Source: Escherichia phage vB_EcoP-CC1. Taken from it: 44,532 bases of DNA. Both the position numbers and the translations under genes were made by a program. The stretch lies in sequence record OX457022; one strand, 5' to 3'. Positions within the stretch are counted from its first letter, which is position 1; each line of letters opens with the position of its first letter. Under the pieces are notes generated by a model, which made no database searches, was not told the DNA's origin, and worked only from the letters and a program-made list of their open reading frames with translations. Below, piece by piece: positions 8,686 to 44,225 of the stretch.

Positions 8686-8694
8686 TAACCTATG

Positions 8695-27333: not shown

Positions 27334-28857
27334 ATGGCTAAACTAACGAGAGTCACTGACTGGCTTGTTAAGGTAAAGTCCAGACTCACTGGTGCAGTAG
27401 AGCGACTGCTTGAAGATAAGTTAAATGACACGGTTAGTGTTAAGGACTTCGGTGCTAAGGGTGACGGTGTGACAGACGACACACAAGCATTTGCTGCCGC
27501 CTCAGCCGCATCGCCTCAAGGTGTTTATGTGCCTGACGGAACATATTTATTACCAGAAGATATTAATGGCAGGTTCTATGGTTCTGGTAAACGCATCAAG
27601 GCTGTAGGTGATGGTGGTATTCCTTTTACCAATGTAGCTCAGTCACATAGTAACCTAATATTAGGATATGATGCTGCAAAGGATTACACGGACGAAGGGA
27701 AAGGCAACCAATTAGTATTACTTGGCCCAAGCTCCGGTCGTAACCTTACCACTGGTACTAACTCCATTGTGGTAGGTGTTGGTGGCCTATCGGGTGATAC
27801 ATTAGAAGATGCACTAACAGATAAATCACCTTTCACTGGTACAGAGATTATTAGCATTGGTATCAATGCTCTTAAGAAAACTACCACTGGTAACAACATG
27901 ATTGGTATTGGTCGTGATGCCCTGAACGAGTGTAAGGATGGAAGATTCAACGTAGCTATAGGTATGTCTGCTTTGCAGCAGCTACACTCTGGTGAGGCTA
28001 ACGTAGCAATAGGGCGTTCAGCCGGTATGCGTACTGGCATCTTCACTAACGAAGATGGTGTACGATTAGGCTATACAAAATGTAGCGGTAATACCTTAAT
28101 AGGTAACGCGGCTGGTCGTGAATTGAAGTCAGGTAATCATAACACCGCCGTAGGCAATGGTGCTATGCGAGGTGTCAGTTCTGATATTAATCCATATACT
28201 GGCACTCTAGAGGGTAATTTTAATACAGCTATTGGTGTTGATACCTTAAACTCCTTAGCATCTGGTGAGTTGAACACCATGATTGGCGCAAGGGCTGGGC
28301 GTAAATTACCTAGTGGCTCTGGTAACATCTTCATCGGTGCGGATGCAGGTGCAGGTATTAACATTGAAAAGTCTAACACTCTCATTATTAACAACCACAC
28401 TGGCTTACCTTTCGTAGAAGGTATTATGGATGGTGCTCAGAGTGAGAATAACTACTTACGTGTTGATGGAAGTGTAGCACCTCAGATTGATAACACAAGA
28501 ACTTGTGGTCAGTCTAGCCGTAGATGGCAGACTGTCTTTTCTACCAATGGTGTTATCCAGACATCGGATGGACGATGCAAGGATGTCTACGATATTGCCA
28601 AGACGGAGTACATGGCTGGTCTAGAGTTATCTTCTAGTATGATTAAGTTCAAATGGACAGATACTAAAGAAGATAAGTATCACTTCGGTTGTCTGGCACA
28701 AGAGGTCATGCTGATTATGGAGAAACATGGGTTAAACCCTCTGGATTATTCCCTCGTTACCTATGATGCTGAAGCAGATATGTATGGTGTTAACTATGCA
28801 GAATTGTCTTGCTTCTGTATCGCAGCAATGTCCAATCATGTACTAGGCAGTGCGTAA
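27334..28857 (+). CDS. tailspike with pectate-lyase-like beta-helix and C-terminal S74-like chaperone domain
   Basis: 507 aa from ATG 27334 (AGGAGA RBS); motif VKDFGAKGDGVTDDTQAF typical of pectate-lyase-fold depolymerases; C-terminal SDGRCKDVYDI chaperone-like motif. Confidence 0.8.
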   Translation: MAKLTRVTDWLVKVKSRLTGAVERLLEDKLNDTVSVKDFGAKGDGVTDDTQAFAAASAASPQGVYVPDGTYLLPEDINGRFYGSGKRIKAVGDGGIPFTNVAQSHSNLILGYDAAKDYTDEGKGNQLVLLGPSSGRNLTTGTNSIVVGVGGLSGDTLEDALTDKSPFTGTEIISIGINALKKTTTGNNMIGIGRDALNECKDGRFNVAIGMSALQQLHSGEANVAIGRSAGMRTGIFTNEDGVRLGYTKCSGNTLIGNAAGRELKSGNHNTAVGNGAMRGVSSDINPYTGTLEGNFNTAIGVDTLNSLASGELNTMIGARAGRKLPSGSGNIFIGADAGAGINIEKSNTLIINNHTGLPFVEGIMDGAQSENNYLRVDGSVAPQIDNTRTCGQSSRRWQTVFSTNGVIQTSDGRCKDVYDIAKTEYMAGLELSSSMIKFKWTDTKEDKYHFGCLAQEVMLIMEKHGLNPLDYSLVTYDAEADMYGVNYAELSCFCIAAMSNHVLGSA

Positions 28858-28870
28858 GCACTGCTTTTCT
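28847..28870 (+). terminator. hairpin terminator overlapping tailspike stop (GCAGTGC-GUAA-GCACTGC then TTTTCT)
   Basis: 7-bp perfect stem, GNRA-type loop containing the stop codon, U-rich tail. Confidence 0.55.
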
Positions 28871-28937
28871 CGCAACTTCCCTTGAAGCAATCTAGCGATA
28901 CCTTCAAGGGAATAGCTCAAGAAAGCAAGGAGGTTTG

Positions 28938-29087
28938 ATGCCGTTGATCAAATCAGTTAAGCAAAGTGCTGTACACCAGAACACAGAAGAACTTATTCAA
29001 TCAGGACGTGACCCTAAGCAGGCCTATGCCATTGCCAAGGATGTACAGCGTCGTGCCATGAAGAAACCTTCTGCATCTTCTGCGTAA
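28938..29087 (+). CDS. hypothetical small basic protein (49 aa)
   Basis: Below ORF-track cutoff; strong RBS AAGGAGG 6 nt upstream of ATG. Confidence 0.4.
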   Translation: MPLIKSVKQSAVHQNTEELIQSGRDPKQAYAIAKDVQRRAMKKPSASSA

Positions 29088-29221
29088 TCAGGTTAATATC
29101 TTAGTGTACACAAGGGCAAACCTATGATAGCTCACAGCACACCTCTGAGTGCCGCTCTGGATTCTATGAATTGTTCCCTGACTATCTAGGTTTGCTCTTA
29201 GTATATTACAAAGGAGGTCAC

Positions 29222-29377
29222 ATGATTTGGATCCACACGTATGGTGTAGGGTCATTCAAGAAGAATGTACTCAGGAAGATCCATGAGTCCGAGGAATCAG
29301 CCTTAGCCAGCCAGAAGGTACTTGGTGGTACTATCCAGTGCTACATGAAGAAGCCACAAGGTTTTGACTTAGTGTAA
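29222..29377 (+). CDS. hypothetical small protein (51 aa)
   Basis: AAAGGAGG RBS 5 nt upstream of ATG 29222 (ORF track begins 29171). Confidence 0.4.
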   Translation: MIWIHTYGVGSFKKNVLRKIHESEESALASQKVLGGTIQCYMKKPQGFDLV

Positions 29378-29430
29378 CCAAAGGTGGTCACAAAGTAACC
29401 AAAGTCAAAATTTTGATGTAGGCGTGTGTC

Positions 29431-29475
29431 AGCCCTCTCGCCCTCGCCCTCGCCGGGTTGTCCCCATAGGGTGGC
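29431..29475. other. GC-rich block in terminal region ((CCCTCG)n then CCCCATAGGG)
   Basis: Non-coding; CCCCATAGGG resembles the CCCCCATAGGGGG element recalled near the T7 left end; candidate terminal-repeat/packaging region. Confidence 0.4.
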
Positions 29476-30092
29476 CTGAGGGAATCCGTCTTCGACGGGC
29501 AGGGCTGATGTACTCCTTGTACTAGCTTAGTAGTACACAAGGGCTGGCCTTTTGTTTTGCCATGTACTAGCAAGGTGGAACGCTGGAGAGCGCCTAGGAC
29601 GGCCTAGGGATGGGCTTAGTGGTGGACAAGGTGATTGCCTTAGTGAAGCCTCTTAGTGCATTCCTGAGGCCATTCAGGGCGTTTATGAGATATTGACAGG
29701 GTGTGCGTGGGTGGGCTATCTGTTCGTTTCGTTCACTCCGCTTGCGCTACGTTCACTCGCTCACGTGTACCTTAGGTTGTTCCTTGATGGATAGCTTAGG
29801 TTAGCCTTAGTGGACTACCTTAGTTATAACCTTAGTGCTTATCTTAGTAATAGCTTAGTAATGTACCTTAGTAAGTCTTAGTGTCTTCTCTTAGTGATTG
29901 CACATGCAAGCATGTAAGATGCCATTAGGTCGCGGTCGGTAGACCGCTAAAGAAAGAGAATAGTAATAAGATGCAGTAGGAGGAACACCAGAAACCTAGC
30001 CAACCTAACCTATCCTAGCTCTGTATCTATTGCTTTTCCTTAGTCTAACATGTGAGACAACCTAGATTTATCTTAGTGATGATAGCTTAGTG

Positions 30093-30121
30093 TTGACAAG
30101 GCCATCTCAATGTAATACTAT
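30093..30121 (+). promoter_or_regulatory. candidate host sigma70 early promoter (TTGACA-17-TACTAT)
   Basis: Perfect -35, 5/6 -10, 17-nt spacer; upstream of early small ORFs. Confidence 0.45.
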
Positions 30122-30193
30122 TCATCACGTAGGCAGCACTGAGGTGCTTAGTAGCCAGCTAGTAAGGCATACGAAGAGACTAGTGCCTGCATT

Positions 30194-30209
30194 GCTCTTT
30201 AACAATTTG
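30194..30209 (+). promoter_or_regulatory. RNase-III-site-like element GCTCTTTAACAATTTG (copy 1)
   Basis: 16-mer repeated exactly at 30805; resembles recalled T7 R0.3 site GCTCTTTAACAATCTGG. Confidence 0.4.
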
Positions 30210-30263
30210 CTTAGTGTAACCTATGTATGCCGTGGTTAATTACTTATTGAATGAGGGTTAACT

Positions 30264-30359
30264 ATGAATTACGAAGAAATGTATGAAGACTACTTCAATT
30301 CACTTGATGAAGGAGAAGAAGCATTGTCCTTTGCTGAGTTTATGGAGGCTTTATCATGA
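30264..30359 (+). CDS. hypothetical early protein (31 aa, acidic)
   Basis: Short ORF with GAGGG upstream; first ORF after terminal region. Confidence 0.3.
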   Translation: MNYEEMYEDYFNSLDEGEEALSFAEFMEALS

Positions 30360-30532
30360 TTCTGAATAACCGTGAACTATCCATTCTCTTCACCTTGTTG
30401 TGCTATATGATTCGTAACAACGAATTACTTACAGACGATGAACTGGCACTATATCACCGTTTCCTTAACGAAGGTTGGGTCGATACAGTTAACCAGAAAC
30501 GTGACTTGATGAAGGAGTTAAGCAATGTTTAA
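30356..30532 (+). CDS. hypothetical early protein (58 aa)
   Basis: ATGA overlap with previous ORF; stop overlaps next ORF start. Confidence 0.35.
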   Translation: MILNNRELSILFTLLCYMIRNNELLTDDELALYHRFLNEGWVDTVNQKRDLMKELSNV

Positions 30533-30734
30533 ACATGAGATTTACACTGATTGCAGTAAATCGGCTAAAGCTATCTGCGATTTGTACAAGGCAGAATGCC
30601 AGACGTACAACCTCAACGATGGTACTGAGATGTTTTATCTTCAGTTTGAAAGCAAGTTATCTCACAAACGAGTGATTAACAGCCTGAATCAACACTCCTT
30701 GGAGTGGGAAGAAGTAAATAGCAATAAAGTTTAA
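30525..30734 (+). CDS. hypothetical early protein (69 aa)
   Basis: GAAGGAG RBS 8 nt upstream. Confidence 0.45.
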   Translation: MFKHEIYTDCSKSAKAICDLYKAECQTYNLNDGTEMFYLQFESKLSHKRVINSLNQHSLEWEEVNSNKV

Positions 30735-30743
30735 ATTAACTAT

Positions 30744-30772
30744 TGACAGCCACGGCATACAAGGTTACATTA
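30744..30772 (+). promoter_or_regulatory. candidate host sigma70 promoter (TTGACA-17-TACATT) upstream of ocr
   Basis: Perfect -35, 4/6 -10. Confidence 0.4.
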
Positions 30773-30804
30773 AGCATCAAGACGGCGACGTCTTTAAACA
30801 TCCC

Positions 30805-30820
30805 GCTCTTTAACAATTTG
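30805..30820 (+). promoter_or_regulatory. RNase-III-site-like element GCTCTTTAACAATTTG (copy 2)
   Basis: Exact repeat of 30194-30209, 94 nt upstream of ocr ATG, same relative position as R0.3 in T7. Confidence 0.45.
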
Positions 30821-30913
30821 GATGGTAGCTTCTTAGTCTGGATAGGTTAAACCTAGGGGATTCTCTTGAGTCTCCTATAATGTAACCTAACTAACTAAAT
30901 GAGGATTAATAAC

Positions 30914-31273
30914 ATGACTATGTCTAATATGACTTACTCTCAGGTTTACAACACCGCTCATGCTGCATTAGTTGAACGTATCTGGAATGATGCTATTGAT
31001 TGTATCGATAACGCACATGATGCAATCCATGAGGTAGCGGACAGTGCTGTACCAATCTATTATGCTGACATCTTCTCAGTGATGGCGAGTGAAGGTATTG
31101 ATCACTTCTTCGAAGACTCCGGCCTGATGCCAGATACTAAGGATGTAACGGTCGTACTACAAGCCCGTATTTATGAACAACTCACCATTGATTTATGGGA
31201 ACGTGTTCAAGATATGATTGTTGCGTACACCAATTACGCTGAGGATTCAGAAGAAGAAGAAGAGGAAGAATAA
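30914..31273 (+). CDS. ocr: Ocr (T7 gene 0.3-like DNA-mimic anti-restriction protein)
   Basis: MTMSNMTY...[42 protein letters not shown]...[14 protein letters not shown] plus poly-Glu tail matches recalled T7 Ocr nearly residue for residue; GAGGA RBS. Confidence 0.85.
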
Positions 31274-31275
31274 GG

Positions 31276-31389
31276 ATGGAAAAGCAATATAACTTTATCT
31301 TTTCAGACGGTGTGACCCTGAAGTGTTCCCTGCGTTTCGCACAGATTCGCGAGGAAGTGCTAGGAACTACATACAAACTATTTAGCTGA
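31276..31389 (+). CDS. hypothetical small protein (37 aa)
   Basis: Short ORF right after ocr; its 3' end contains promoter-like sequence at 31380. Confidence 0.25.
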   Translation: MEKQYNFIFSDGVTLKCSLRFAQIREEVLGTTYKLFS

Positions 31390-31401
31390 CACTATAAGAG
31401 A
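31380..31401 (+). promoter_or_regulatory. variant phage promoter-like sequence (ATTTAGCTGACACTATAAGAG)
   Basis: 16/17 match to SP6-type -17 to -1 but A at +1; upstream of RNAP gene. Confidence 0.4.
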
Positions 31402-31462
31402 GGGTTTAACAGGGCGCTCTTGCGAGAGTGCCCGATTAAATCAACTTAACGAGATATTAAAT

Positions 31463-31639
31463 ATGAAATACATACTGATTGCTATGTTTTCTGGCTTCAT
31501 TGGCTATGCTGGTGCTTCTTATGACAACTACAGAAGTAAGCAATTGGCTGCTGAAAAGTGGGATAAAACCTATTTTGCTTGTATGAAACAAGGTAATTTG
31601 ATGCAAGATTGCATACTTAAAGCGCACAGCGAAGAGTGA
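31463..31639 (+). CDS. hypothetical small membrane protein (58 aa)
   Basis: Below ORF-track cutoff; N-terminal hydrophobic segment ILIAMFSGFIGYAGA; weak RBS. Confidence 0.35.
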   Translation: MKYILIAMFSGFIGYAGASYDNYRSKQLAAEKWDKTYFACMKQGNLMQDCILKAHSEE

Positions 31640-31703
31640 TGAGCCTATAGCCTACTTAAGTGGGCTATGTGAACACCATTCATTAACTCAAAAGGTGACT
31701 ATT

Positions 31704-32627
31704 ATGACTACTGAAAACACCCTCCTGTCTGTTCGTGAAGCTGCAACCGCTGAGATCAAGCAACACTTAGACAATATCGGCACTTCTTACATCAAAGTTG
31801 GCGCTTGTCTTAATGAGTTACGCGGTGACTTTGAAGGTCAAAAAGACTTTTTGGCTTATGTAGAATCAGAATTTGGAATCAAGAAAGCACAATGTTACAA
31901 GCTGATGAGTGTAGCCCGTGTCTTTGAAGGCGATGATCGCTTTAAAGGCGTGGCGATGCGTGTAATGCTGGCACTTGTTCCTTTCGCTGATGAAAATATC
32001 ATCATGGAGAAAGCCGCAGAACTTGCCGCAGCGGGCAAGCTGGACACTAATGCCGTAAATGCCCTGATTGATCCTAAGAAAGAGACAAAGGCCGAGACGG
32101 TACAATCTAAGGCTGAGGCGGTAAAACCGCAGGAGAATGCGACTGAGGCCGCAGAAACTATGCAAGGACATGCGACCTTTGAGGATTTCATCTTAGAGAA
32201 GGCGAAAGAGGAATTACAAAGTGTGCCGCCAGTAAGTGAGTCGGGTAACGACGAATCCGCACCGTGGGAAGATGAAAGCAAGCCGGAAGCGCCAAAGGCC
32301 GCGCCACTGGATAACACGGCTAACACGGAGAACGCCGCTATGTCTGGCCTACTGGCACAAATTAAGGCACTGACTGAGCAATTACAGGCAGCTAACGACC
32401 GCATCGCCGCCCTAACCAGTGCACGGGAAGGTAAGAAAGCGGCTGCGCCTATGCTTCCGCAGTTTAAATCCTCTTGCTTCTACGCTCGCTTAGGCTTGAG
32501 CGCCGAGGAAGCAACGAAGAAAACAGCAGTGAATAAGGCACGCCGTGAACTGGTTAAACTAGGGTATGGTGAAGGTCATGAGGCATGGCCTTTGATCTCT
32601 GAGGCAGTAGAAGAATTAACTAAGTAA
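31704..32627 (+). CDS. hypothetical early protein (307 aa), Ala/Glu/Lys-rich C-terminal half
   Basis: ATG 31704 with AAAGG upstream (ORF track start is GTG 31695); occupies slot between ocr and RNAP; no kinase motifs recognised. Confidence 0.6.
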   Translation: MTTENTLLSVREAATAEIKQHLDNIGTSYIKVGACLNELRGDFEGQKDFLAYVESEFGIKKAQCYKLMSVARVFEGDDRFKGVAMRVMLALVPFADENIIMEKAAELAAAGKLDTNAVNALIDPKKETKAETVQSKAEAVKPQENATEAAETMQGHATFEDFILEKAKEELQSVPPVSESGNDESAPWEDESKPEAPKAAPLDNTANTENAAMSGLLAQIKALTEQLQAANDRIAALTSAREGKKAAAPMLPQFKSSCFYARLGLSAEEATKKTAVNKARRELVKLGYGEGHEAWPLISEAVEELTK

Positions 32628-32690
32628 CCTTATCGGTGGCATCTTCTTAGGTGTCACCTATTAAGGTTTCTTTCACTAGGAGTAAACAAG

Positions 32691-35318
32691 ATGCAAGATC
32701 TACACGCTATTCAGCTTCAGCTTGAGGAAGAAATGTTTAACGGCGGTATTCGTCGCTTTGAAGCAGACCAACAACGCCAGATTGCATCAGGTAATGAATC
32801 CGATACGGCATGGAATCGTCGCCTGTTGTCGGAGCTTATCGCACCTATGGCGGAAGGTATTCAGGCTTATAAGGAAGCCTACGAAGGAAAGAAAGGACGC
32901 GCACCGCGTGCACTGGCCTTCATTAACTGCGTAGAGAACGAAGTGGCAGCATATATCACGATGAAGATCGTAATGGATATGCTTAACACAGATGTAACCT
33001 TGCAAGCCATAGCAATGAATGTAGCTGATCGCATCGAAGATCAAGTACGCTTCAGCAAGCTGGAAGGCCACGCCGCCAAATACTTTGAAAAAGTTAAGAA
33101 GTCACTCAAGGCAAGTAAGACTAAATCATATCGCCATGCGCACAACGTAGCGGTAGTGGCTGAGAAGTCAGTAGCTGACCGTGACACTGATTTCTCCCGC
33201 TGGGAGGCGTGGCCTAAAGATACCTTACTGCAAATCGGTATGACCTTGCTAGAAATACTGGAGAATAGCGTATTCTTCAATGGTCAACCTGTCTTCCTCC
33301 GCACCTTGCGCACTAATGGTGGCAAGCATGGTGTTTACTACTTACAGACCAGTGAGCACGTAGGGGAGTGGGTTACAGCATTTAAAGAACATGTAGCGCA
33401 ACTTAGTCCGGCCTATGCACCTTGCGTCATTCCTCCGCGCCCTTGGGTGTCCCCTTTTAATGGTGGGTTTCATACTGAGAAGGTGGCAAGTCGCATCCGT
33501 TTGGTAAAAGGCAACCGTGAGCACGTCCGTAAGCTGACCAAAAAGCAAATGCCAGCAGTTTATAAGGCTGTTAATGCTTTACAGGCCACTAAGTGGCAAG
33601 TTAACAAAGAAGTTTTGCAGGTAGTAGAAGACGTTATCCGTCTCGACCTTGGTTATGGTGTACCTTCCTTTAAACCACTCATCGACCGCGAGAACAAGCC
33701 GGCTAACCCAGTGCCGTTAGAATTTCAACACTTGCGAGGCCGCGAACTGAAGGAAATGTTAACGCCGGAACAATGGCAAGCCTTCATCAACTGGAAAGGT
33801 GAATGCACCAAGCTGTATACCGCTGAGACTAAGCGCGGAAGTAAGTCGGCGGCAACCGTTCGCATGGTAGGACAAGCGCGCAAATACAGCCAGTTTGATG
33901 CGATTTATTTCGTGTATGCACTGGATAGCCGCTCACGCGTTTATGCGCAATCTAGCACACTCTCACCGCAATCAAACGACCTAGGCAAGGCGTTACTGCG
34001 TTTTACCGAAGGGCAGCCGCTAAATAGCTCTGAGGCGCTTAAATGGTTTTTGGTGAACGGGGCGAATAACTGGGGTTGGGATAAGAAGACTTTCGACGTG
34101 CGCACCGCTAACGTACTGGACGGCGAGTTTCAAGATATGTGCCGCGACATTGCAGCGGATCCTCTGACCTTTACTCAATGGGTAAATGCCGATTCACCTT
34201 ATGGATTCCTTGCATGGTGCTTTGAGTATGCTCGTTATTTGGATGCACTGGATGAAGGAACACAAGATCAGTTTGTGACGCATTTACCTGTTCATCAAGA
34301 TGGTAGCTGTTCTGGCATCCAGCACTACAGTGCTATGCTACGCGACGAAGTGGGTGCGAAGGCGGTAAACCTTAAACCATCCGACTCGCCTCAAGATATT
34401 TATGGAGCGGTTGCGCAGGTTGTTATCCAGAAGAACTACGCCTACATGAATGCAGATGATACAGAAACTTTCACATCTGGAAGCGTAACACTTACAGGTG
34501 CAGAACTGCGCAGCATGGCTAACGCGTGGGATATGATTGGGATCACTCGCGGCTTAACCAAAAAGCCAGTAATGACCTTGCCATACGGCTCCACCCGCTT
34601 AACCTGCCGTGAATCGGTGATTGATTATATCGTTGATTTGGAAGAAAAAGAGGCGCAGAGAGCTGTTGCCGAAGGGCGGACGGCTAATCCTGTGCACCCT
34701 TTTGATAATGACCGTAAAGACTATCTGACACCTGGTGCAGCTTACAACTATATGACCGCTTTAATTTGGCCTTCTATCTCTGAGGTTGTTAAAGCGCCTA
34801 TAGTGGCGATGAAAATGATTCGCCAGCTTGCACGATTCGCAGCTAAAAGAAACGAAGGGTTAGAGTACACCTTACCCACTGGTTTCATCTTGCAGCAAAA
34901 GATAATGGCTACCGACATGCTACGCGTATCCACTTGCTTGATGGGTGAAATCAAGATGAGTCTACAGATTGAGACTGATGTAGTGGATGAAACGGCAATG
35001 ATGGGCGCTGCCGCTCCTAACTTTGTTCACGGTCATGATGCGAGTCACCTTATTCTGACTGTATGTGACCTAGTTGACAAAGGTATTACATCAATTGCAG
35101 TTATTCATGACTCTTTCGGAACTCATGCAGGCCGTACATCAGATCTTCGTGATAGCTTAAGGGCAGAAATGGTTAAGATGTATCAAGGGCGTAACGCCTT
35201 GCAGCAATTGCTGGATGAGCATGAAGAACGTTGGTTGGTGGACACTGGCATTCAAGTGCCGGAACAAGGGGAGTTTAACCTTGAAGAGATATTAGTTTCT
35301 GACTATTGTTTTGCATAA
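32691..35318 (+). CDS. single-subunit DNA-directed RNA polymerase (SP6-type)
   Basis: 875 aa; N-terminus [32 protein letters not shown] and C-terminus ending DYCFA agree with recalled SP6 RNAP; AGGAG RBS. Confidence 0.95.
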
Positions 35319-35325
35319 TATTGAT

Positions 35326-35357
35326 AGGCCATTCCTTAGGGAGTGGCCTTTTCTTTT
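35326..35357 (+). terminator. intrinsic (rho-independent-type) terminator after RNAP gene
   Basis: Stem AGGCCATTCC/GGAGTGGCCT (one G-U), loop TTAG, then TTTTCTTTT; candidate early terminator. Confidence 0.7.
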
Positions 35358-35391
35358 ACCTATTACCTGTAACATTTAATTAACATAACCG

Positions 35392-35409
35392 TGTCTCACG
35401 CGTGAGACT
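35392..35409. repeat. palindrome family member TGTCTCAC-GC-GTGAGACT
   Basis: Perfect 16-bp palindrome GTCTCACGCGTGAGAC; 2 nt upstream of promoter at 35411. Confidence 0.85.
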
Positions 35410-35410
35410 T

Positions 35411-35432
35411 ATTTACCGGACACTATAGGATA
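35411..35432 (+). promoter_or_regulatory. phage RNAP promoter class I (ATTTACCGGACACTATAGGAT), +1 G at 35428
   Basis: Family consensus with C at -11. Confidence 0.8.
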
Positions 35433-35463
35433 ACCGTCGGAGACGGAAAGAGAAGGGAAGATA

Positions 35464-35513
35464 AGGATATAAAGGAAGTAATAGGTATTAAAGGTTGTAT
35501 AGGTTTACCTAGG
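35464..35513. repeat. periodic AGG array (AGG at 35464, 35473, 35483, 35492, 35501, 35511)
   Basis: Six AT-rich (T)A(A)AGG units at 9-10 bp period between two promoters downstream of RNAP gene; candidate replication origin. Confidence 0.8.
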
Positions 35514-35572
35514 AATACTTATTACCTTCTTCCTTCCTCTTCTTACTACCTAGAGGAAGGGCAGACCTAGGT

Positions 35573-35590
35573 TGTCTCACATGTGAGACT
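35573..35590. repeat. palindrome family member TGTCTCAC-AT-GTGAGACT
   Basis: 4 nt upstream of promoter-like sequence at 35595. Confidence 0.85.
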
Positions 35591-35594
35591 TCGT

Positions 35595-35616
35595 ATTTAC
35601 CGGACAGTATAGATAA
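35595..35616 (+). promoter_or_regulatory. variant phage promoter (ATTTACCGGACAGTATAGATAAG), +1 G at 35612
   Basis: C to G change at -5 relative to family consensus; directly upstream of gp1.1-like gene. Confidence 0.45.
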
Positions 35617-35642
35617 GACTAACTTACTTTGGAGATTTAACC

Positions 35643-35771
35643 ATGCGTAACTTTGAGAAGATGACCCGTAAAGCTAACCGTTTTGACATGGAAGAAGGGC
35701 AGACGAGAGGCAAGAAGCTGAATAAACCTGTCCGTGACCGTGCATCTAAACGAGCAGCGTGGGAGTCCTAA
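35643..35771 (+). CDS. T7 gp1.1-like small basic protein
   Basis: 42 aa MRNFEKMTRKANRF...GKKLNKPVRDRASKRAAWES matches recalled T7 gene 1.1 MRNFEKMTKRSNRN...GRKLNKTKRDRSHKRSWEGQ; GGAGA RBS. Confidence 0.6.
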   Translation: MRNFEKMTRKANRFDMEEGQTRGKKLNKPVRDRASKRAAWES

Positions 35772-35774
35772 GTT

Positions 35775-37763
35775 ATGGCTATTATTCAGAACGTACCGTG
35801 CCCTGCCTGCCAAAAGAATGGACACGATAAATCCGGCAACCATCTTATGATATTTGAGGATGGCGCTGGTTACTGTAACCGTGGTCATTTCCATGATAAT
35901 GGCAAACCTTATTACCATAAGCCAGAGGGCGGCATCGAGATAACCGAATTGCCCATTACTGGCAATATCAAATACACACCTTCTCAATTCAAAGAAATGG
36001 AGAAGGAAGGGAAGATAAGCGACCCTAAGCTACGCGCCATCGCACTTGGTGGTATGCGTATGAAAGACCGTTGGGAGGTCATGAATGAGCAAGAAAGGGC
36101 AGACCAAGAAGCAGAGTGGAAACTTGATGTTGAATGGTTCCTCACGCTTAAGCGTAAGAACCTTGTTTCCCGACACATTCGCGGCGACATTTGCGCATTG
36201 TATGATGTACGTGTCGGACACGATGAAGAGGGTAGAGTCTCGCGGCATTACTATCCACGCTTCGAGAAAGGTGAGCTAGTAGGAGCTAAGTGTCGCACAT
36301 TACCTAAAGACTTTAAGTTTGGTCATTTAGGTAAACTCTTTGGTATGCAAGATCTTTTCGGGATGAATACTTTGTCTCACGTGTTAGACAAGGGAAGACG
36401 AAAGGATTGCTTGCTTATTGTTGGTGGGGAACTGGATGCGCTAGCAGCGCAGCAGATGCTCCTTGATTCTGCCAAGGGTACTAAGTGGGAAGGTCAACCT
36501 TACCATGTATGGTCTGTTAACAAAGGGGAGTCTTGCCTTGAAGAGATTGTGCAGAACCGTGAACACATCGCCCAATTCAAGAAGATTATTTGGGGCTTCG
36601 ATGGGGATGAGGTAGGGCAGAAGCAGAACCAGCAAGCGGCTCGCCTGTTCCCTGGCAAATCTTATATCCTTGAATACCCCTCTGGTTGCAAAGATGCCAA
36701 CAAGGCATTGATGGCTGGTAAAGCCAAAGAATTTGTGGATGCTTGGTTTAATGCAAAGTCATCTGATGAAGTCTTTGGTAGCCAGATTAAATCTATCGCA
36801 TCTCAAAGGGATAAGCTCAAGGCTGCACGTCCAGAACAAGGGCTGTCATGGCCTTGGCCTAAGCTAAACAAGGTAACACTGGGTATCCGTAAGAACCAGC
36901 TTATCATTATAGGTGCAGGCTCTGGTGTTGGTAAGACAGAGTTCCTCCGTGAAGTGGTAAAGCATCTCATCGAAGAACACGGTGAATCTGTAGGTATCAT
37001 TTCTACAGAAGACCCGATGGTCAAAGTGTCCCGTGCTTTTATCGGTAAGTGGATTGATAAGCGTATTGAACTACCGCCAACCAATGACCCGAAAGAAGAT
37101 GGCTACCGTGAGGTGTTCGACTATACAGAGGAAGAGGCTAATGCTGCCATTGATTATGTAGCTGATACAGGGAAGCTGTTTGTAGCTGACCTAGAGGGTG
37201 ACTATTCGATGGAGAAGGTAGAGCAAACTTGCCTAGAGTTTGAGGCTATGGGTATTTCTAATATCATCATTGATAACTTAACGGGGATTAAATTAGATGA
37301 GCGTGCTTTTGGTGGGAAGGTTGGTGCACTTGATGAATGCGTCAAACGAATTGGTACTATCAAAGACCGACATGCGGTTACGATTTTCCTTGTCTCTCAC
37401 CTTACACGCCCTCCGGCAAACCGTACCCAACACGAAGAAGGTGGCGAAGTTATCCTTTCTGACTTCCGAGGCTCAGGCGCTATCGGATTCTGGGCATCTT
37501 ACGCCTTGGGGATTGAGCGTAATACAAGAGCTGAAACGCTTGATGAACGGACTACCACGTACATCTCATGTGTCAAAGACCGCGACCAAGGTATCTACAC
37601 TGGAACCAAGGTCATGCTTAAGGGTGACATTCAAACCGGACGTTTAATGGAACCACAAGCCCGTACTAAGTCATTTGATACAGGTGAAGCAAGGCAACAA
37701 GAAGTACCTGATTTACCGGACACTATAGAAGAGACAACCTTTGACGATGAACAGGAGTTTTGA
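35775..37763 (+). CDS. DNA primase/helicase (T7 gp4-like)
   Basis: N-terminal zinc-binding CPACQKNG...GYCNRGHFHD, central primase-type region, helicase Walker A GAGSGVGKT; acidic C-terminus DDEQEF. Confidence 0.9.
   Translation: MAIIQNVPCPACQKNGHDKSGNHLMIFEDGAGYCNRGHFHDNGKPYYHKPEGGIEITELPITGNIKYTPSQFKEMEKEGKISDPKLRAIALGGMRMKDRWEVMNEQERADQEAEWKLDVEWFLTLKRKNLVSRHIRGDICALYDVRVGHDEEGRVSRHYYPRFEKGELVGAKCRTLPKDFKFGHLGKLFGMQDLFGMNTLSHVLDKGRRKDCLLIVGGELDALAAQQMLLDSAKGTKWEGQPYHVWSVNKGESCLEEIVQNREHIAQFKKIIWGFDGDEVGQKQNQQAARLFPGKSYILEYPSGCKDANKALMAGKAKEFVDAWFNAKSSDEVFGSQIKSIASQRDKLKAARPEQGLSWPWPKLNKVTLGIRKNQLIIIGAGSGVGKTEFLREVVKHLIEEHGESVGIISTEDPMVKVSRAFIGKWIDKRIELPPTNDPKEDGYREVFDYTEEEANAAIDYVADTGKLFVADLEGDYSMEKVEQTCLEFEAMGISNIIIDNLTGIKLDERAFGGKVGALDECVKRIGTIKDRHAVTIFLVSHLTRPPANRTQHEEGGEVILSDFRGSGAIGFWASYALGIERNTRAETLDERTTTYISCVKDRDQGIYTGTKVMLKGDIQTGRLMEPQARTKSFDTGEARQQEVPDLPDTIEETTFDDEQEF
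37711..37732 (+). promoter_or_regulatory. phage RNAP promoter class I embedded in primase/helicase 3' end (ATTTACCGGACACTATAGAAGAG), +1 G at 37728
   Basis: Exact consensus inside coding sequence (encodes DLPDTIEET). Confidence 0.7.
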
Positions 37764-37924
37764 TGGAAATTATTAAACCATTATTAAATATCGGCGTTGA
37801 CATCCTATTCATGCTTATGCTAGCAAACTATGCTGCACGATATGGATTCAAGCCAGCTGTGAAACTTATCGTTGCATCTGGTTTTCTTATGTCAATGTTC
37901 TTTATTGTAACACACCTTATCTAG
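37763..37924 (+). CDS. hypothetical small hydrophobic protein (53 aa)
   Basis: Below ORF-track cutoff; TGATG overlap with primase stop; two predicted hydrophobic segments. Confidence 0.35.
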   Translation: MEIIKPLLNIGVDILFMLMLANYAARYGFKPAVKLIVASGFLMSMFFIVTHLI

Positions 37925-37940
37925 TGTATTTATCAGGGCT

Positions 37941-37958
37941 TGTCTCACATGTGAGACA
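37941..37958. repeat. 18-bp perfect palindrome TGTCTCACATGTGAGACA
   Basis: 17 nt after stop of small ORF; identical to copy at 15571. Confidence 0.9.
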
Positions 37959-37996
37959 GGCTCTTATTAAGTACATTAAATAACTGGAGATTGATT

Positions 37997-38719
37997 ATGT
38001 ATAAATTAGTATTGAATGCAGGTGATTATGTTCGTAACATCAATGAAGCCTCACGTCGTTATCGTTGCCGTGGTGTGGTTAGCTATGTAAGTGAGAACAT
38101 GTACCATGTGGAGTACAGCAACGGCATTAAACAATCTTATCATAAGAAGTTAGCACATAACTACCTTGAGAAGATTGGCGAGACAAGCAATCAATGCAAG
38201 TGTGTACATGATGAGGTTTGCGATAAGTGCAAACGTCAGGCAATTAAAGCCTTTACCTTTGCGCAACGTTATGGTTCTATGTATGGTGCTGGTCACAAGA
38301 CCGTTGCAGAAGCAGCTTGGAAGACATTACAGTTTGAGCATTCAAATGGACGACGCACCACAATTAAGAAAGAGCGCCGCAATGTCATCACTGGTAAGAC
38401 TCAAAGTGAGATGATTAAGCAATGTGGCACTGCATTAGGTGTTACACAGTTCAATACACGTGCTCTAGGTAAATCTACAGGACAAGCTATGTTTAAGATT
38501 GGTGAAGCCATGATGCACCCAAATGTACCTGTGCGAATCATGGATGTTGACCATGCAATCACAGAACATGGTACAACACGGCGTGTAGTTAATAATCATT
38601 TTGCCGACACTATAGAAGATATTATCCGTAAGCAAGGATTGAAAGGTCTTCACATCTTAAATGGTGAAGAGTTGCTGTACCTTCCTATTGTTACCGAAGA
38701 AACCTACGTGAATATCTAA
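37997..38719 (+). CDS. hypothetical protein (240 aa) with Cys cluster
   Basis: GGAGA RBS 6 nt upstream of ATG 37997; CKCVHDEVCDKC cluster; between primase and DNA polymerase. Confidence 0.55.
   Translation: MYKLVLNAGDYVRNINEASRRYRCRGVVSYVSENMYHVEYSNGIKQSYHKKLAHNYLEKIGETSNQCKCVHDEVCDKCKRQAIKAFTFAQRYGSMYGAGHKTVAEAAWKTLQFEHSNGRRTTIKKERRNVITGKTQSEMIKQCGTALGVTQFNTRALGKSTGQAMFKIGEAMMHPNVPVRIMDVDHAITEHGTTRRVVNNHFADTIEDIIRKQGLKGLHILNGEELLYLPIVTEETYVNI
38588..38609 (+). promoter_or_regulatory. weak promoter-like sequence inside coding region (ATTTTGCCGACACTATAGAAG)
   Basis: Core CACTATAGAAG intact but 3 mismatches at -13, -12, -10; probably non-functional. Confidence 0.2.
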
Positions 38720-38729
38720 GGAGTTAATC

Positions 38730-38918
38730 ATGACTAAAGTATTGATTTATATGAGAGGTGCTAATAAATGCTATGCAGTTGTAGCACCTGATGGGGTCAA
38801 GCCTTACGGTACTTCAAAAGGATTAGCATTAATAGGTGCTAGTCGCAGTGCAAGTTTCCAAATGGAACTTTTTGGTCATTGGACTGAAAAAAAGAATTCC
38901 GTGAAGAGTTTAATGTAA
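38730..38918 (+). CDS. hypothetical protein (62 aa)
   Basis: AAGGAG RBS 7 nt upstream. Confidence 0.5.
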   Translation: MTKVLIYMRGANKCYAVVAPDGVKPYGTSKGLALIGASRSASFQMELFGHWTEKKNSVKSLM

Positions 38919-38939
38919 TTGGCAGCTTTATGGTGAAAC

Positions 38940-39137
38940 ATGCAAAATAAACATAGCCTTAAGATGTTTGATGGTCACGAAGACCTGCAAGCACAAATTA
39001 CCAACCAAGCCTTCCTGTTTGCACAGTTAACTATGGCTGAAGCAAAGAAGAACAGCCTTACTCGTGAGCAGATTATCAAGGAAGGTAGCCGTGGTGCTAC
39101 TCGTCGTACCAAGAACCACAGAAGTGGTGCTCGCTAG
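38940..39137 (+). CDS. hypothetical protein (65 aa)
   Basis: ORF only; weak RBS. Confidence 0.35.
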   Translation: MQNKHSLKMFDGHEDLQAQITNQAFLFAQLTMAEAKKNSLTREQIIKEGSRGATRRTKNHRSGAR

Positions 39138-39153
39138 TCGATAAGTCAAGGGT

Positions 39154-39171
39154 TGTCTCACGTGTGAGACA
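39154..39171. repeat. palindrome family member TGTCTCAC-GT-GTGAGACA
   Basis: 17 nt after preceding stop; flanked by AAGGG...CCTTT. Confidence 0.9.
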
Positions 39172-39201
39172 GCCTTTCATCATATTGATTGGAGGTGCAT
39201 T

Positions 39202-39309
39202 ATGCCACGTGATTATGATTCTGATTGGGACTACTATGACTCAATGAATCCAAAACCCGAACGTTCAGATGATTACTACGAAACAGAGGCAATGTATGAA
39301 AACTATTGA
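39202..39309 (+). CDS. hypothetical small acidic protein (35 aa)
   Basis: Below ORF-track cutoff; GGAGGTG RBS; Asp/Tyr-rich; overlaps DNA polymerase start. Confidence 0.4.
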   Translation: MPRDYDSDWDYYDSMNPKPERSDDYYETEAMYENY

Positions 39310-41842
39310 TTGGAAGAAGGAAGCAGAAGGCCGCATCCTCGTCATGGACGCAGAAGCTAAAGGTCTGCTTGATGCTATCCGCTACGGTCATCGTGAAGAT
39401 GTACACATCATTTGCTGCATGGACTTGCTCACCACTGAGGAGTTCCTCTTCTTCGACCCATATGAGATGCGTGACCCTGAAGCAAGAGAACGCCTGAAGG
39501 AGTGGGAAGGCCATCAAGATGGTGACTTGGTTGACGGTGTTAACTTCCTGAAACACTGTGAAGCTATCGTGTCACAGAACTTCCTAGGGTATGACGGCCT
39601 CCTTTTTGAGAAAGCCTTCCCTGATATCTGGAAAGGTTTTAACTATACCGAAAGGCGCGGCAAGGGCAGACTCCGTGCCGACCTGTGTCCTGTGCGAGTC
39701 ATGGACACGCTGGTGATGAGCCGCCTGTTAAACCCCGATAGACGCCTTCCTCCGCAAGCATATGCCAAAGGTATGGGTAACGTCGCCCCTCATTCAATTG
39801 AGGCGCACGGCATCCGTATAGGACGCTATAAGCCGGAGAATGAGGACTGGTCTAAACTAACTGACCACATGGTTCACCGTGTCCGCGAGGACGTGGCAAT
39901 CGGTCGTGACCTTTTCCTGTGGCTGTACAATGGAGAGTGGACGGAGCATAAACGCCGTGGCGTGAATAAACGCACTGGCCTAGGCATTGAGACAGCCTTC
40001 CACATGGAGTCTATTGTGGCGCTGGAGATGAGCCGTCAGGCAGAGCGTGGATTCCGTCTGGATATTGACAAAGCACTAGCGCGATGCGAAGAACTGGACG
40101 CTAAGATTGATGAGACAGTCGCAGCGTTCCGCCCTCACATGCCTATGCGTATCAAGTCTAAACCTTTTAAACCGGAAGAAAAGAATGAAGTATGCCAACG
40201 CGCAAATGAGTATGGAGCTAGCAACAATATACCTACTGTCCTTGACCCCTCACACTTTCTTCATGCCGAGAGACGAGGAGATCGCAAGACAGTATGGAGT
40301 GTCACTACTAAGTCTGGTGATTGGTCGGCTAGCGTCAAGAAAGACTTTCCTCACCTTAGAGGAAACCGTAATGACACGCCAAGCATCAAGTGGATTGGCG
40401 CTTACTCGCCTGTTACTTTCGAAGAGATTCCCTTGGGTAACAGGGATACAGTTAAGCAAGTGCTCTATGATTATGGATGGAAAGGTGTTGAATTTAACGA
40501 TACCGAGCAAGCGCATCTCGATGAGCATGGCGTATTACCCAAACCTTGGAGTGGAAAGATAAATGAGAAATCCCTTACTTTATGGCAAGAAAGAGCCGCA
40601 CGTGAAGGTAAAACAGTACCAGATTGGTGCTTGGGTATCGCTGCATGGTACATACTCGTATCCCGTCGTGGTCAGATCCTCAACCGTGGTGACGTTGAAG
40701 CCTTCGATCAGAAGGGGGCGTGGCCTTCGCAAGCTGGTGTACGAAAGTGTCGCGGCCTTATACCTGTAGCCTTTAACAAGGAATTAGGAATCAATGCGCA
40801 ACAATACTACGAGAGGTATGGGTATTGGCCTACGTCTGACAAGGATGACGGAGAGTGGCGTGTGCCAGCTATTGCTATTAGTATTGGCACTTCTACGTTC
40901 CGTATGCGTCATCGCAATGTGGTTAATATTCCTGCCCGTGGCTTGTATCCTTTACGTGATTTATTCATAGCAGGTAAAGGTAAGCTAATCCTTGGTTGTG
41001 ATGGTGCAGGTCTTGAACTACGTGTACTTTCTCACTTCATGAATGACCCTGAGTACCAAGATATTGTACTGCATGGCGATATACATACTCATAACCAGAT
41101 GAAGGCGGGTCTTCCTAAGCGTGATATGGCGAAGACATTTATATATGCCTTCCTTTACGGCTCTGGTATAGCTAACCTTGCAGCAGTGTGCGGTGTTACT
41201 GAGGAAGAAATGAAGGAAGTTGTGGCAAGATTCGAGATTGAATTACCATCCCTTGCACGTCTTCGTGAGAATGTTATCGCACAAGGCAACAAGTTTGGAT
41301 ACTTACAAGCACCTGACGGGCATTGGGGTCGCATCCGTATGTCTGGTGGAGAACTTAAAGAGCACACTATGCTTAATGTATTACTCCAAATGACTGGCTC
41401 TTTGTGTATGAAATACGCATTGGTCAAAGCGTTTGCAGTGATGCGCAAGGAAGGTGTGGCCTTAGATAGTATGGGACACCCTTGTGGTGTAGCTAACGTG
41501 CACGATGAAATCCAGATGGAAGTACCTGAAGAAGAGGTATTGTATCTTAACTACGACCTACCTTTCACCTTAGAGGGGTTTGAAACAGAGAAGGCTGCTG
41601 TGAAAGCAGTATTCGATGCAGAGGAGAAACGTGTTCATGTGGATTCTGAAGGACGTATGTGGTCTGCTGCAAATCTCATTAGTGTTGATGCTGCTGCTGG
41701 TGTACTTCATTGCCAGCGTCGTTATCACCGCGCAGGGCATATCATTGCCGACGCCATGACTTGGGCTGGTCAGTATCTGAAGATGCGTTGCCCGATGGCA
41801 GGCGAGTATAAGATTGGCGCAAGCTGGAAGGAAACGCACTAG
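39296..41842 (+). CDS. DNA polymerase (family A, T7 gp5-like)
   Basis: 848 aa from ATG 39296 (ORF track 39269); polymerase-type motifs incl. HDEIQMEV; position after primase-helicase. Confidence 0.9.
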   Translation: MKTIDWKKEAEGRILVMDAEAKGLLDAIRYGHREDVHIICCMDLLTTEEFLFFDPYEMRDPEARERLKEWEGHQDGDLVDGVNFLKHCEAIVSQNFLGYDGLLFEKAFPDIWKGFNYTERRGKGRLRADLCPVRVMDTLVMSRLLNPDRRLPPQAYAKGMGNVAPHSIEAHGIRIGRYKPENEDWSKLTDHMVHRVREDVAIGRDLFLWLYNGEWTEHKRRGVNKRTGLGIETAFHMESIVALEMSRQAERGFRLDIDKALARCEELDAKIDETVAAFRPHMPMRIKSKPFKPEEKNEVCQRANEYGASNNIPTVLDPSHFLHAERRGDRKTVWSVTTKSGDWSASVKKDFPHLRGNRNDTPSIKWIGAYSPVTFEEIPLGNRDTVKQVLYDYGWKGVEFNDTEQAHLDEHGVLPKPWSGKINEKSLTLWQERAAREGKTVPDWCLGIAAWYILVSRRGQILNRGDVEAFDQKGAWPSQAGVRKCRGLIPVAFNKELGINAQQYYERYGYWPTSDKDDGEWRVPAIAISIGTSTFRMRHRNVVNIPARGLYPLRDLFIAGKGKLILGCDGAGLELRVLSHFMNDPEYQDIVLHGDIHTHNQMKAGLPKRDMAKTFIYAFLYGSGIANLAAVCGVTEEEMKEVVARFEIELPSLARLRENVIAQGNKFGYLQAPDGHWGRIRMSGGELKEHTMLNVLLQMTGSLCMKYALVKAFAVMRKEGVALDSMGHPCGVANVHDEIQMEVPEEEVLYLNYDLPFTLEGFETEKAAVKAVFDAEEKRVHVDSEGRMWSAANLISVDAAAGVLHCQRRYHRAGHIIADAMTWAGQYLKMRCPMAGEYKIGASWKETH

Positions 41843-42026
41843 TGGATAGATTAGATATTGTTTGCTTGTTCTTTACCTTCTTTCTTGTCTTTCTTATGCT
41901 TGCTTGTTATGGAAGTATTCAGGTAAATATACCTGATGAAGAGGAAGGATACGACTGAGTTATACTCAAGGTCACTTACGAGTGGCCTTTATGAATAACT
42001 TACTCCTACTTATTTTGTCTAACATG

Positions 42027-42048
42027 ATTTACTGGACACTATAGAAGG
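42027..42048 (+). promoter_or_regulatory. phage RNAP promoter class I (ATTTACTGGACACTATAGAAGG), +1 G at 42044
   Basis: Exact consensus downstream of DNA polymerase gene. Confidence 0.85.
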
Positions 42049-42103
42049 AAAGCCTAGGTAATCTAGGTTTATAAGGTAGTATAGGTAATTAAGTAAATAT
42101 AGG
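42046..42103. repeat. periodic AGG array (AGG at 42046, 42056, 42065, 42074, 42083, 42101)
   Basis: AT-rich TAGG/TAAGG units at 9-10 bp period in leader of 125-aa gene. Confidence 0.8.
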
Positions 42104-42113
42104 AGATATAAAT

Positions 42114-42491
42114 ATGTCTATGGTAACTACTCTGGTATTCGTAGCTCAATACTTTCGTGGCCTGGCTAATAAGTTTAAACAGAAAGCAATCTTTGCAATT
42201 CAAGAACGTATTAATAAAATTGAAGAAGAACAAGTAGATGTAGAGGAACATCGTAGTTCTCAGATGATTGACCTGCATAATCGTCTGTACAAAGATCGTG
42301 ATGAGATGCGTCACCGTCATGCGAAGGAAGTTGAAGACATGCTTAACCGCCATGCGGAAGAACAAGCTAAGTTGGAAACCACTTTCCATGAGGATAAACG
42401 TAGCATCGCTCTAGCACATCAAGCTGCATCGGATAGCCTGAAGAAAGAGATTGTTATGCTGGAGATTGAGTTAGACAATCTTACCAAATAA
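42114..42491 (+). CDS. hypothetical coiled-coil protein (125 aa)
   Basis: RBS TAGGAGA; charged heptad-like sequence through most of the length. Confidence 0.55.
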   Translation: MSMVTTLVFVAQYFRGLANKFKQKAIFAIQERINKIEEEQVDVEEHRSSQMIDLHNRLYKDRDEMRHRHAKEVEDMLNRHAEEQAKLETTFHEDKRSIALAHQAASDSLKKEIVMLEIELDNLTK

Positions 42492-42511
42492 TTACTGGAC
42501 ACTATAGAACA
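42490..42511 (+). promoter_or_regulatory. phage RNAP promoter (AATTACTGGACACTATAGAAC), +1 G at 42507
   Basis: One mismatch from class I consensus (A for T at -16); overlaps stop codon of preceding gene. Confidence 0.7.
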
Positions 42512-42653
42512 ATAGGTCGGCTTAGTTCGGCCTATGATTGTAAAGTGTTGAACCTTATTGTGCATCTTGCACAACCCGATACCGTATCGGGCTTTCTAGT
42601 GAGTACATGCTTGTGCTCAGTACAAAGCTAACTGACAATAGGAGACTAAATAA

Positions 42654-43460: not shown

Positions 43461-43469
43461 GGAGGGATG

Positions 43470-43688
43470 ATGAAGGTACAAATCGTAACCCTGCACTGCA
43501 AGAAGGGCATTACAACCCTTGGCGGAAACACTTTTCACTCCTTCTCTGAAGGGGAGACATATTCTGACCTGCACTACATCTGGCGCGATGGGCAGCACGT
43601 GGTGAACTACAGCGACCCCGCTACAGGGAAACGCCACGGCGTATCTCTTCCGGCGCACGACATTGCTCAGGTGAACACAGTTTTATAA
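43470..43688 (+). CDS. hypothetical protein (73 aa)
   Basis: Strong RBS TAAGGAGGG. Confidence 0.5.
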   Translation: MKVQIVTLHCKKGITTLGGNTFHSFSEGETYSDLHYIWRDGQHVVNYSDPATGKRHGVSLPAHDIAQVNTVL

Positions 43689-43689
43689 A

Positions 43690-43705
43690 GTCTCACATGT
43701 GAGAC
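43690..43705. repeat. palindrome family member GTCTCAC-AT-GTGAGAC
   Basis: Starts 2 nt after preceding stop; 15 nt upstream of promoter 43721. Confidence 0.85.
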
Positions 43706-43720
43706 AAATCGGTGTCCAGT

Positions 43721-43742
43721 ATTTACTGGACACTATAGAAGA
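43721..43742 (+). promoter_or_regulatory. phage RNAP promoter class I (ATTTACTGGACACTATAGAAGAG), +1 G at 43738
   Basis: Exact consensus 55 nt upstream of 122-aa gene. Confidence 0.85.
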
Positions 43743-43792
43743 GAAGAATTTTAATCGGCGATAATGCCATAACTAACAAAGGAGAATTTAAT

Positions 43793-44161: not shown

Positions 44162-44167
44162 TTGATG

Positions 44168-44203: not shown

Positions 44204-44225
44204 AATAGTTATTGGAGAATGAATT

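Follow-up and report, generated by a model that had tools for sequence, protein, structure and literature searches.

A probable intrinsic terminator behind the RNA polymerase gene of Escherichia phage vB_EcoP-CC1: structural conservation among SP6-like phages and likeness to the T7 elements TE and R1.1

The whole stretch of DNA analysed here, referred to as the window, comprises 44,532 nucleotides of Escherichia phage vB_EcoP-CC1 (sequence record OX457022). It is a rotated copy of the linear genome, in which the left ends of the phages R4596, K1-5 and SP6 align at about 29435-29438, and its genes, like the 14 phage promoter matches, all lie on the + strand. The 901 nt from 34900 to 35800 are 100% identical to Escherichia phage vB_EcoP-CC2 (OX638290.1, 44,531 bp) and 89-92% identical to many Vectrevirus phages (K1-5, K1E, R4596 and others; Autographiviridae, Molineuxvirinae). 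This region holds the end of the gene for the single-subunit phage RNA polymerase (RNAP), a hairpin with a U-tract, an AT-rich spacer, two phage promoters each accompanied by a palindrome, a gene 1.1 homologue and the start of the primase/helicase gene (Table 1).

Upstream of the RNAP gene, two sigma-70-like promoter candidates (30093 and 30743) lie 0.7-1.3 kb from the left end, and the stretch containing the second matches R4596 at 100% and K1-5 at 98.8% identity, with flanks that diverge. A promoter of the phage type at 31380 is found at the same place in R4596 (2082), K1-5 (2014) and SP6 (2104). Autogenous transcription of the RNAP gene by the phage enzyme is suggested by this site, which may be weak, with its A at +1. 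As a separate observation on the left end, the T7 class II pause motif ATCTGTT has its sole + strand copy at 29718-29724, 283 nt inside that end, and its total count in the window is not above chance.

Table 1. Positions of the features discussed in the text, in window coordinates.
Feature	Position	Strand	Remarks
Strict terminator	8694-8720	+	After major head gene (PHROG 267)
Sigma-70-like early promoter candidate, TTGACA-17-TACTAT	30093..30121	+	10/12 matches; ~660 nt from physical left end
Sigma-70-like early promoter candidate, TTGACA-17-TACATT	30743..30771	+	Upstream of ocr
ocr gene	30899-31273
Phage-type promoter-like site, ATTTAGCTGACACTATA followed by A	31380..31397	+	+1 A, not G; ~1.3 kb upstream of RNAP gene
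Single-subunit phage RNAP gene	32691..35318	+	875 aa; Pfam RNA_pol E = 2e-89, RPOL_N E = 3e-31; annotated RNAP in OX638290.1
RNAP stop codon, TAA	35316-35318	+
Terminator hairpin (putative)	35326-35349	+	Arms 35326-35335 and 35340-35349; loop UUAG 35336-35339
U-tract, TTTCTTTT	35350-35357	+	7/8 T; RNA 3' ends predicted here
AT-rich spacer	35358..35392	+	~26 nt (TATTACCTGTAACATTTAATTAAC) nearly invariant from Vectrevirus to SP6
Palindrome, GTCTCAC-GC-GTGAGAC	35393..35408	+	Ends 2 nt before promoter
Phage promoter 1, ATTTACCGGACACTATA followed by G	35411..35428	+	Consensus; +1 G at 35428; first after terminator
Palindrome copy 2, GTCTCAC-AT-GTGAGAC	35574..35589	+
Phage promoter 2, ATTTACCGGACAGTATA	35595..35612	+	+1 G at 35612; upstream of gene 1.1 homologue
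Gene 1.1 homologue	35643-35771		Pfam Phage_1_1 E = 1e-15
Primase/helicase	35775..37763
T7-type RNase III site	41956-42002		ACTCAAGGTCACT-TACG-AGTGGCCTTTATGA; ACTCAAGGTC...GGCCTTTATGA plus 8-bp lower stem; z = -3.5
Strict terminator	44167-44194	+	Sequence relative of the 8694 site
Palindrome, all copies	15572-15587, 35393-35408, 35574-35589, 37942-37957, 39155-39170, 43690-43705

The hairpin reads AGGCCATTCC-TTAG-GGAGTGGCCT and is followed by TTTCTTTT with a gap of 0 nt from the stem. Its ten pairs comprise six G-C, three A-U and one G-U, and 7 nt separate it from the RNAP stop codon, its first base being the eighth nucleotide past the stop. Folded alone it reaches -17.9 kcal/mol (z = -4.7) and in a context of 56 nt -19.0 kcal/mol (z = -3.8), and in both cases none of 200 shuffles was as good. 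The stem and loop are within the range of intrinsic terminators (about 5-14 bp and GC-rich, with a loop of 3-8 nt), a U-rich tract starts directly 3' of the stem at 35350, and the element lies on the transcribed strand, intergenic and downstream of a gene end. The initial annotation had described a 10-bp stem with a U-tract, beginning 8 nt past the RNAP stop, and its coordinates and pairing match those observed here; the phage promoter that it placed 54 nt further on is likewise in place, counted from the end of the U-tract to the promoter start at 35411. Its description of the element as a strong intrinsic terminator is borne out at the level of sequence, with every feature present and the structure conserved across the SP6-like clade. 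Two details count against it, namely the C that interrupts the U-tract and the absence of an A-tract upstream of the stem. An Rfam scan of 35000-35900 at E <= 10 gave sub-threshold chance matches only, none of them near the gathering score. Since the stop codon is just 7 nt from the stem, a ribosome paused there could transiently cover the 5' arm.

Hairpins followed by T-rich stretches may also arise by chance and have no function, and the loose consensus scanner, with its many matches (22 against 11.9 expected), would leave room for such an explanation; by this scanner the post-RNAP terminator ranks second within 28000-44532. As the generic scanner is noisy, a stricter scan was carried out over the whole window on both strands (2 x 44.5 kb), with a stem of at least 8 bp, at least 4 GC pairs and at least 6 T in 8. 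Three sites were detected (8694, 35326 and 44167), each located between genes on the + (coding) strand, compared with a mean of 0.375 matches on dinucleotide shuffles, and a stem of at least 10 bp with at least 6 GC pairs was seen in 0 of 40 shuffles. A chance origin of the hairpin is contradicted by this rarity under the strict filter and by the folding z-scores. The sites at 8694 and 44167 constitute a sequence family of their own (GCCCTRTCTRCC...GGYAGGGT-CTTTTGT), unlike the post-RNAP hairpin, and are found in regions driven by phage promoters only. These two are probably terminators for the phage RNAP, similar to T-phi of T7, and the existence of two families fits, if only weakly, a host-type terminator at 35326 and phage-RNAP terminators elsewhere.

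Comparison among relatives offers a further view of the element. Using the RNAP C-terminus, 25 IMG/VR loci (74-99% amino acid identity) were found and considered together with R4596, K1-5 and SP6, and in every one of them a GC-rich hairpin with a T-rich tail begins 5-22 nt past the RNAP stop. The Vectrevirus stem is AGGCCATTCC/GGAGTGGCCT, with R4596 and K1-5 having the same stem sequence as the window, and the SP6 stem is AGGTCAGCC/GGCTGGCCT; stems at other loci are GGGAGGC/GCCTCCC, AGGGCCAGCC/GGTTGGCCTT, AAGGGCAGAC/GTCTGCCTTT, AGGCCATCC/GGGTGGCCT and GGGCGGCC/GGTCGCCC. When the 17 distinct sequences were anchored on the loop, pairs 1-8 were found to be paired in 98.5% of cells, compared with 32-59% in controls where the 3' arm was slid by 1-2 nt, and positions 2-7 of the stem occur as several pair types. 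RNAalifold on the MAFFT alignment recovers the helix, with double compensatory changes in five of the ten pairs. At least 6 T within 9 nt past the stem were observed for 16 of the 17 distinct relatives; in the remaining one (L012) the automatic stem call was defeated by a stem mismatch. The loop UUAG of the window is shared by Raoultella phage P3a, and among the 16 other distinct relatives the loop is UUCG in 13 and UUCU, UUCA or UCCG in the remaining three; the predicted stability is unchanged.

More distant phages extend this picture, as both Erwinia phage Tapenade (63% identity in the RNAP C-terminus) and Vibrio phage D529 (41% RNAP identity) have an unrelated GC-rich hairpin with a T-run after the RNAP stop. 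Because these distant relatives keep the hairpin and the T-run with unrelated stems, it is the shape of a terminator that is conserved and not its sequence. This conservation of shape is the strongest evidence for function obtainable without experiments. Above all, it is this compensatory conservation at the same position, down to 41% RNAP identity, that contradicts a functionless chance hairpin, and on the comparative data that explanation may be regarded as effectively refuted.

Given that the element is rare in the genome and that its hairpin and T-tract are kept in all relatives examined, with compensatory changes, a working intrinsic terminator is very probable. From the observed sequence features, rarity, position and conservation with compensatory changes, we infer, with a probability of roughly 85%, that the early transcription unit with the RNAP gene ends at a Rho-independent (intrinsic) terminator, an inference that covers the act of termination, the polymerase affected and the efficiency. 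The element is the first strong terminator downstream of the sigma-70 early promoter candidates, and the strict scan of the whole window found none between the 30093 and 30743 promoters and 35326. In the proposed sequence of events, host RNAP would start at the sigma-70 promoters near the left genome end, at about 30.1 and 30.7 kb, and would transcribe ocr, several small genes, gp6 and the phage RNAP gene. The nascent RNA of 35326-35349 would then fold into the 10-bp hairpin, and the weak rU:dA hybrid over the U-tract would release the transcript at about 35355-35358. A stable hairpin would remain at the 3' end of the RNAP mRNA and should also guard the message against 3' exonucleases; the downstream module of promoters and palindromes would be shielded by the terminator from host read-through. 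In the literature searched, no 3'-end mapping for this phage or any SP6-like phage was found, nor any relevant transcriptomics of SP6-like or Molineuxvirinae phages.

The polymerase that is stopped need not be that of the host alone. Since the 31380 promoter is conserved upstream, phage RNAP may transcribe gp6 and the RNAP gene into the terminator, which may also act on such transcripts or be read through by them. The genome entry of T7 is driven by transcription, and if entry were driven likewise here, 31380 could be the place where phage RNAP takes over; it would then have to read through 35326 at least partly, which would speak against a terminator meant chiefly for the phage enzyme. An element of that kind, a class I terminator for the phage's own RNAP with the stopping of host RNAP as a secondary effect, would end the 31380 transcripts and limit autogenous RNAP synthesis, or bar read-through of the phage RNAP into the origin-like module downstream. 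It appears to us rather improbable, though it deserves consideration in view of the upstream phage-type promoter conserved in R4596, K1-5 and SP6, and of phiA318, which also has a promoter upstream of its RNAP gene, read as autoregulation (PMC4099482). Moreover, single-subunit RNAPs stop at signals consisting of a hairpin and a U-run, and the termination efficiency of SP6 RNAP at SP6 t5 is 86% (PMC11347151). On the other hand, the family of the 8694 and 44167 sites, located in regions with phage promoters only, differs from the post-RNAP hairpin, which looks like T7 TE, a terminator for host RNAP, and the 31380 promoter itself, with its +1 A, may be weak.

The intrinsic terminator after the RNAP gene stands at the head of a region with a recurrent layout. 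The order of terminator, spacer, 16-bp palindrome, promoter 1, 5' hairpin, repeats, pyrimidine tract, palindrome 2, promoter 2 and gene 1.1 is common to SP6-like enterobacterial phages down to loci L023-L029. Between Vectrevirus and SP6 the spacer is nearly invariant, and the neighbouring RNAP C-terminus reaches only about 83% protein identity; in more distant relatives the spacer is not conserved. The 5' hairpin after promoter 1 covaries (CCGTC-GGA-GACGG, CCATC-GAA-GATGG, CCTTC-GGA-GAAGG) and is followed by TAGGTA-like purine-rich repeats and then the pyrimidine tract, with a GC skew of +0.65 that flips to -0.33 and with the inverted repeats I1, I3 and I4. Within 35428-35612 no conserved ORF was found, and a long hairpin or ncRNA fold of the 35428-35600 transcript was considered and set aside, its z-score of -1.6 being not significant. 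The stretch 35428-35612 is likely to serve as an origin region or to yield a short non-coding RNA of about 170 nt. The T7 origin is associated with phi1.1A and phi1.1B, and in the T3 record the primary replication origin comes directly behind the promoter located past gene 1; as the module sits where the origin is placed in both phages, it is, by this analogy, probably an origin region.

The palindrome of this module recurs elsewhere in the window. Perfect copies of GTCTCAC-NN-GTGAGAC number six against 0 expected, all of them intergenic; in three cases a phage promoter follows at a distance of 2-15 nt, and some copies extend to stems of about 11 bp. SP6 and several distant relatives have GTCCAAC-NN-GTTGGAC at the same places, with both arms changed, and Erwinia phage Tapenade and Vibrio phage D529 retain GTCTCAC...GTGAGAC. 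The palindrome could be a protein-binding dyad or an RNA hairpin.

A different role is brought to mind by the sequence of the post-RNAP stem itself. The R1.1 site of T7 leaves a protective 3' hairpin on the gene 1 mRNA, and the hairpin of the window could similarly be mainly an element of RNA processing or stability, a relative of T7/T3 R1.1 whose 3' end is made or trimmed by nucleases and not by termination. Between phi1.1A and phi1.1B, T7 has the hairpin AGGTCATTC-GCAA-GAGTGGCCTTT, also given as AAGGTCATTC-GCAA-GAGTGGCCTTTATGATT, which we take to be the upper stem of the R1.1 RNase III site reported by Dunn and Studier (1983). Compared with AGGCCATTCC-TTAG-GGAGTGGCCTTT of the window, the left arms agree in 8 of 9 bases and the right arms in 11 of 11, and both hairpins are located in the interval between gene 1 and gene 1.1. 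The motif AGGYCR...YGGYCTT has five matches on the + strand of T7, at 1442, 5862, 6422, 13868 and 36831, presumably the sites R0.5, R1.1, R1.3, R4.7 and R18.5. On the + strand of the window it has three matches (32573, 35326 and 41969) against 0.1 in shuffles, and an R1.1-like upper stem of the AAGGUCR...YGGCCUU type is recognisable in AGGCCATTCC...GGAGTGGCCTT. In the T3 record, the stem-loops R1.1 and R1.3 are listed as RNase III sites, and their arms are similar in kind. Elsewhere in the window, at 41956-42002, there is a full RNase III site of the T7 type.

Several properties of the hairpin, however, speak against cleavage by RNase III. Substrates of the E. coli enzyme typically need about two helical turns (PMC1540722), and the post-RNAP stem has 10 bp compared with the roughly 20 bp needed. 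For a lower stem there is a single possibility, an AU-rich pairing worth about 1 kcal/mol that is disrupted in K1-5 with no compensating change, CTACTACC standing there in place of CTATTACC; a lower stem that would turn the hairpin into an RNase III substrate was therefore rejected as weak and not conserved, the helix falling short of two turns. The typical flanks ACTCA and TATGATT are absent and an 8-nt T-run is found instead, and the distant relatives, with their hairpin and T-run on unrelated stems, keep the shape of a terminator. When the hairpin was aligned locally to the complete T7 genome, the score was not significant, with 7 of 100 shuffles scoring as high, and the best match in T7 is a hairpin near 1456 and not R1.1. 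As the alignment is not significant, the resemblance to R1.1 rests on the match of the two arms, the motif census and the shared position.

With the lower stem and flanks absent, the U-run present and the T7 alignment not significant, processing by RNase III as the main role of the hairpin is unlikely. Nevertheless, the role of the terminator hairpin could include processing or stabilisation, given that its arms are of the same sequence family as the upper stems of T7/T3 RNase III sites. On the same grounds, it can be suggested quite tentatively, as a possibility that we would not favour, that the post-RNAP terminator of Vectrevirus and Zindervirus and R1.1 of T7 and T3 go back to a single ancestral hairpin located between genes 1 and 1.1. 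If true, the same protective 3' hairpin on the RNAP mRNA would be obtained through termination in one lineage and through RNase III cleavage in the other, with an evolutionary switch between terminator and processing site by gain or loss of the U-run or the lower stem. Two further sites in the window carry the motif. The RNase III-type site at 41956-42002 lies about 110 nt past the end of the DNA polymerase gene and just before the promoter at 42027, and a weaker relative at 32573-32593 is situated within the final part of gp6, ahead of the RNAP gene; the latter was considered as an analogue of R1 and rejected, its fold being not significant (z = -1.65).

The presence of a terminator at this place has been recorded for related phages. 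In GenBank MK373771.1 (vB_EcoP_R4596) the homologous site is entered as a terminator predicted by ARNOLD, UAB_Phi78 has its first Rho-independent terminator behind the RNAP gene, with SP6 terminators in the same positions (PMC4837284), and the equivalent post-RNAP element of phiA318 has been called 'TE' (PMC4099482). The terminator is real and strongly conserved, but it belongs to the standard features of SP6/K1-5-like phages and has been annotated before. Its significance beyond correct annotation is small: it marks the end of the host-transcribed early unit in a K1-5-like coliphage of the therapeutic type, which is useful for engineering such genomes or for reuse as a compact terminator part. 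What the comparison adds is the structural conservation down to 41% RNAP identity, the location of the element at the place of T7/T3 R1.1 with the stem sequence of R1.1 and not at the place of TE, and its position at the head of a conserved module of promoters, palindromes and repeats that, by analogy with T3 and T7, is probably a replication origin region.

Among known systems, the closest are the post-RNAP terminators of SP6-like phages (SP6, UAB_Phi78, vB_EcoP_R4596 and the 'TE' of phiA318), which occupy the same position ahead of a promoter pair and a gene 1.1 homologue and have the same design; nearly all of them have a UUCG loop where the window has UUAG, and otherwise there is no difference. 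T-phi of T7 is comparable to the site at 8694, which likewise follows the capsid or head gene with a hairpin and U-run on the coding strand. Sites of the T-phi type stop phage RNAP and follow the capsid gene, and the hairpins at 8694 and 44167 form a sequence family apart from the post-RNAP hairpin.

R1.1 of T7 and T3 shares with the window hairpin the interval between gene 1 and gene 1.1 and, in the case of T7, nearly identical stem arms, and in both cases the RNAP mRNA would end in a hairpin. The window hairpin differs in having a U-run and in having neither a conserved lower stem nor the ACUCA and UAUGAUU flanks. The order also differs, as a phage promoter precedes the hairpin in T7 whereas the hairpin precedes the promoter in the window.

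TE is a Rho-independent terminator for E. coli RNAP, and in T7 it has the form GGCTCACC-TTCG-GGTGGGCC-TTTCTGCG, which is the same design as the window hairpin. The shape shared with TE of T7 and T3 consists of a GC-rich stem of 8-10 bp, a UUCG-type tetraloop and a ...GGCC-UUUCU tail, with the T7 hairpin less stable than that of the window (-14.2 against -17.9 kcal/mol), and the presumed shared role is to end early transcription by host RNAP. The position is not equivalent. TE of T7 is found at 7588, after the ligase gene 1.3, and the 1.77 kb that separate it from the gene 1 stop contain phi1.1A, phi1.1B and phi1.3; TE of T3 (7646-7667) and a hairpin with a T-run in K1F also come after the ligase gene, and no terminator directly after gene 1 was found in T7, T3 or K1F. 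The element of the window, in contrast, follows the RNAP gene directly and precedes the promoter pair. When the initial annotation called it the analogue of T7 TE, it was therefore right as to form and likely right as to function, but not as to position; since TE lies after ligase, downstream of three phage promoters, the analogy is functional and not positional, and it need not reflect homology to TE. The same annotation regarded the element as separating host early transcription from the phage-driven region, which agrees with its location downstream of the sigma-70-like promoters and ahead of the tandem phage promoters, although the separation is not a clean one, with the conserved phage-type promoter at 31380 lying upstream. 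The terminator of the window thus resembles TE in form and probably in function, at a different place in the gene order.
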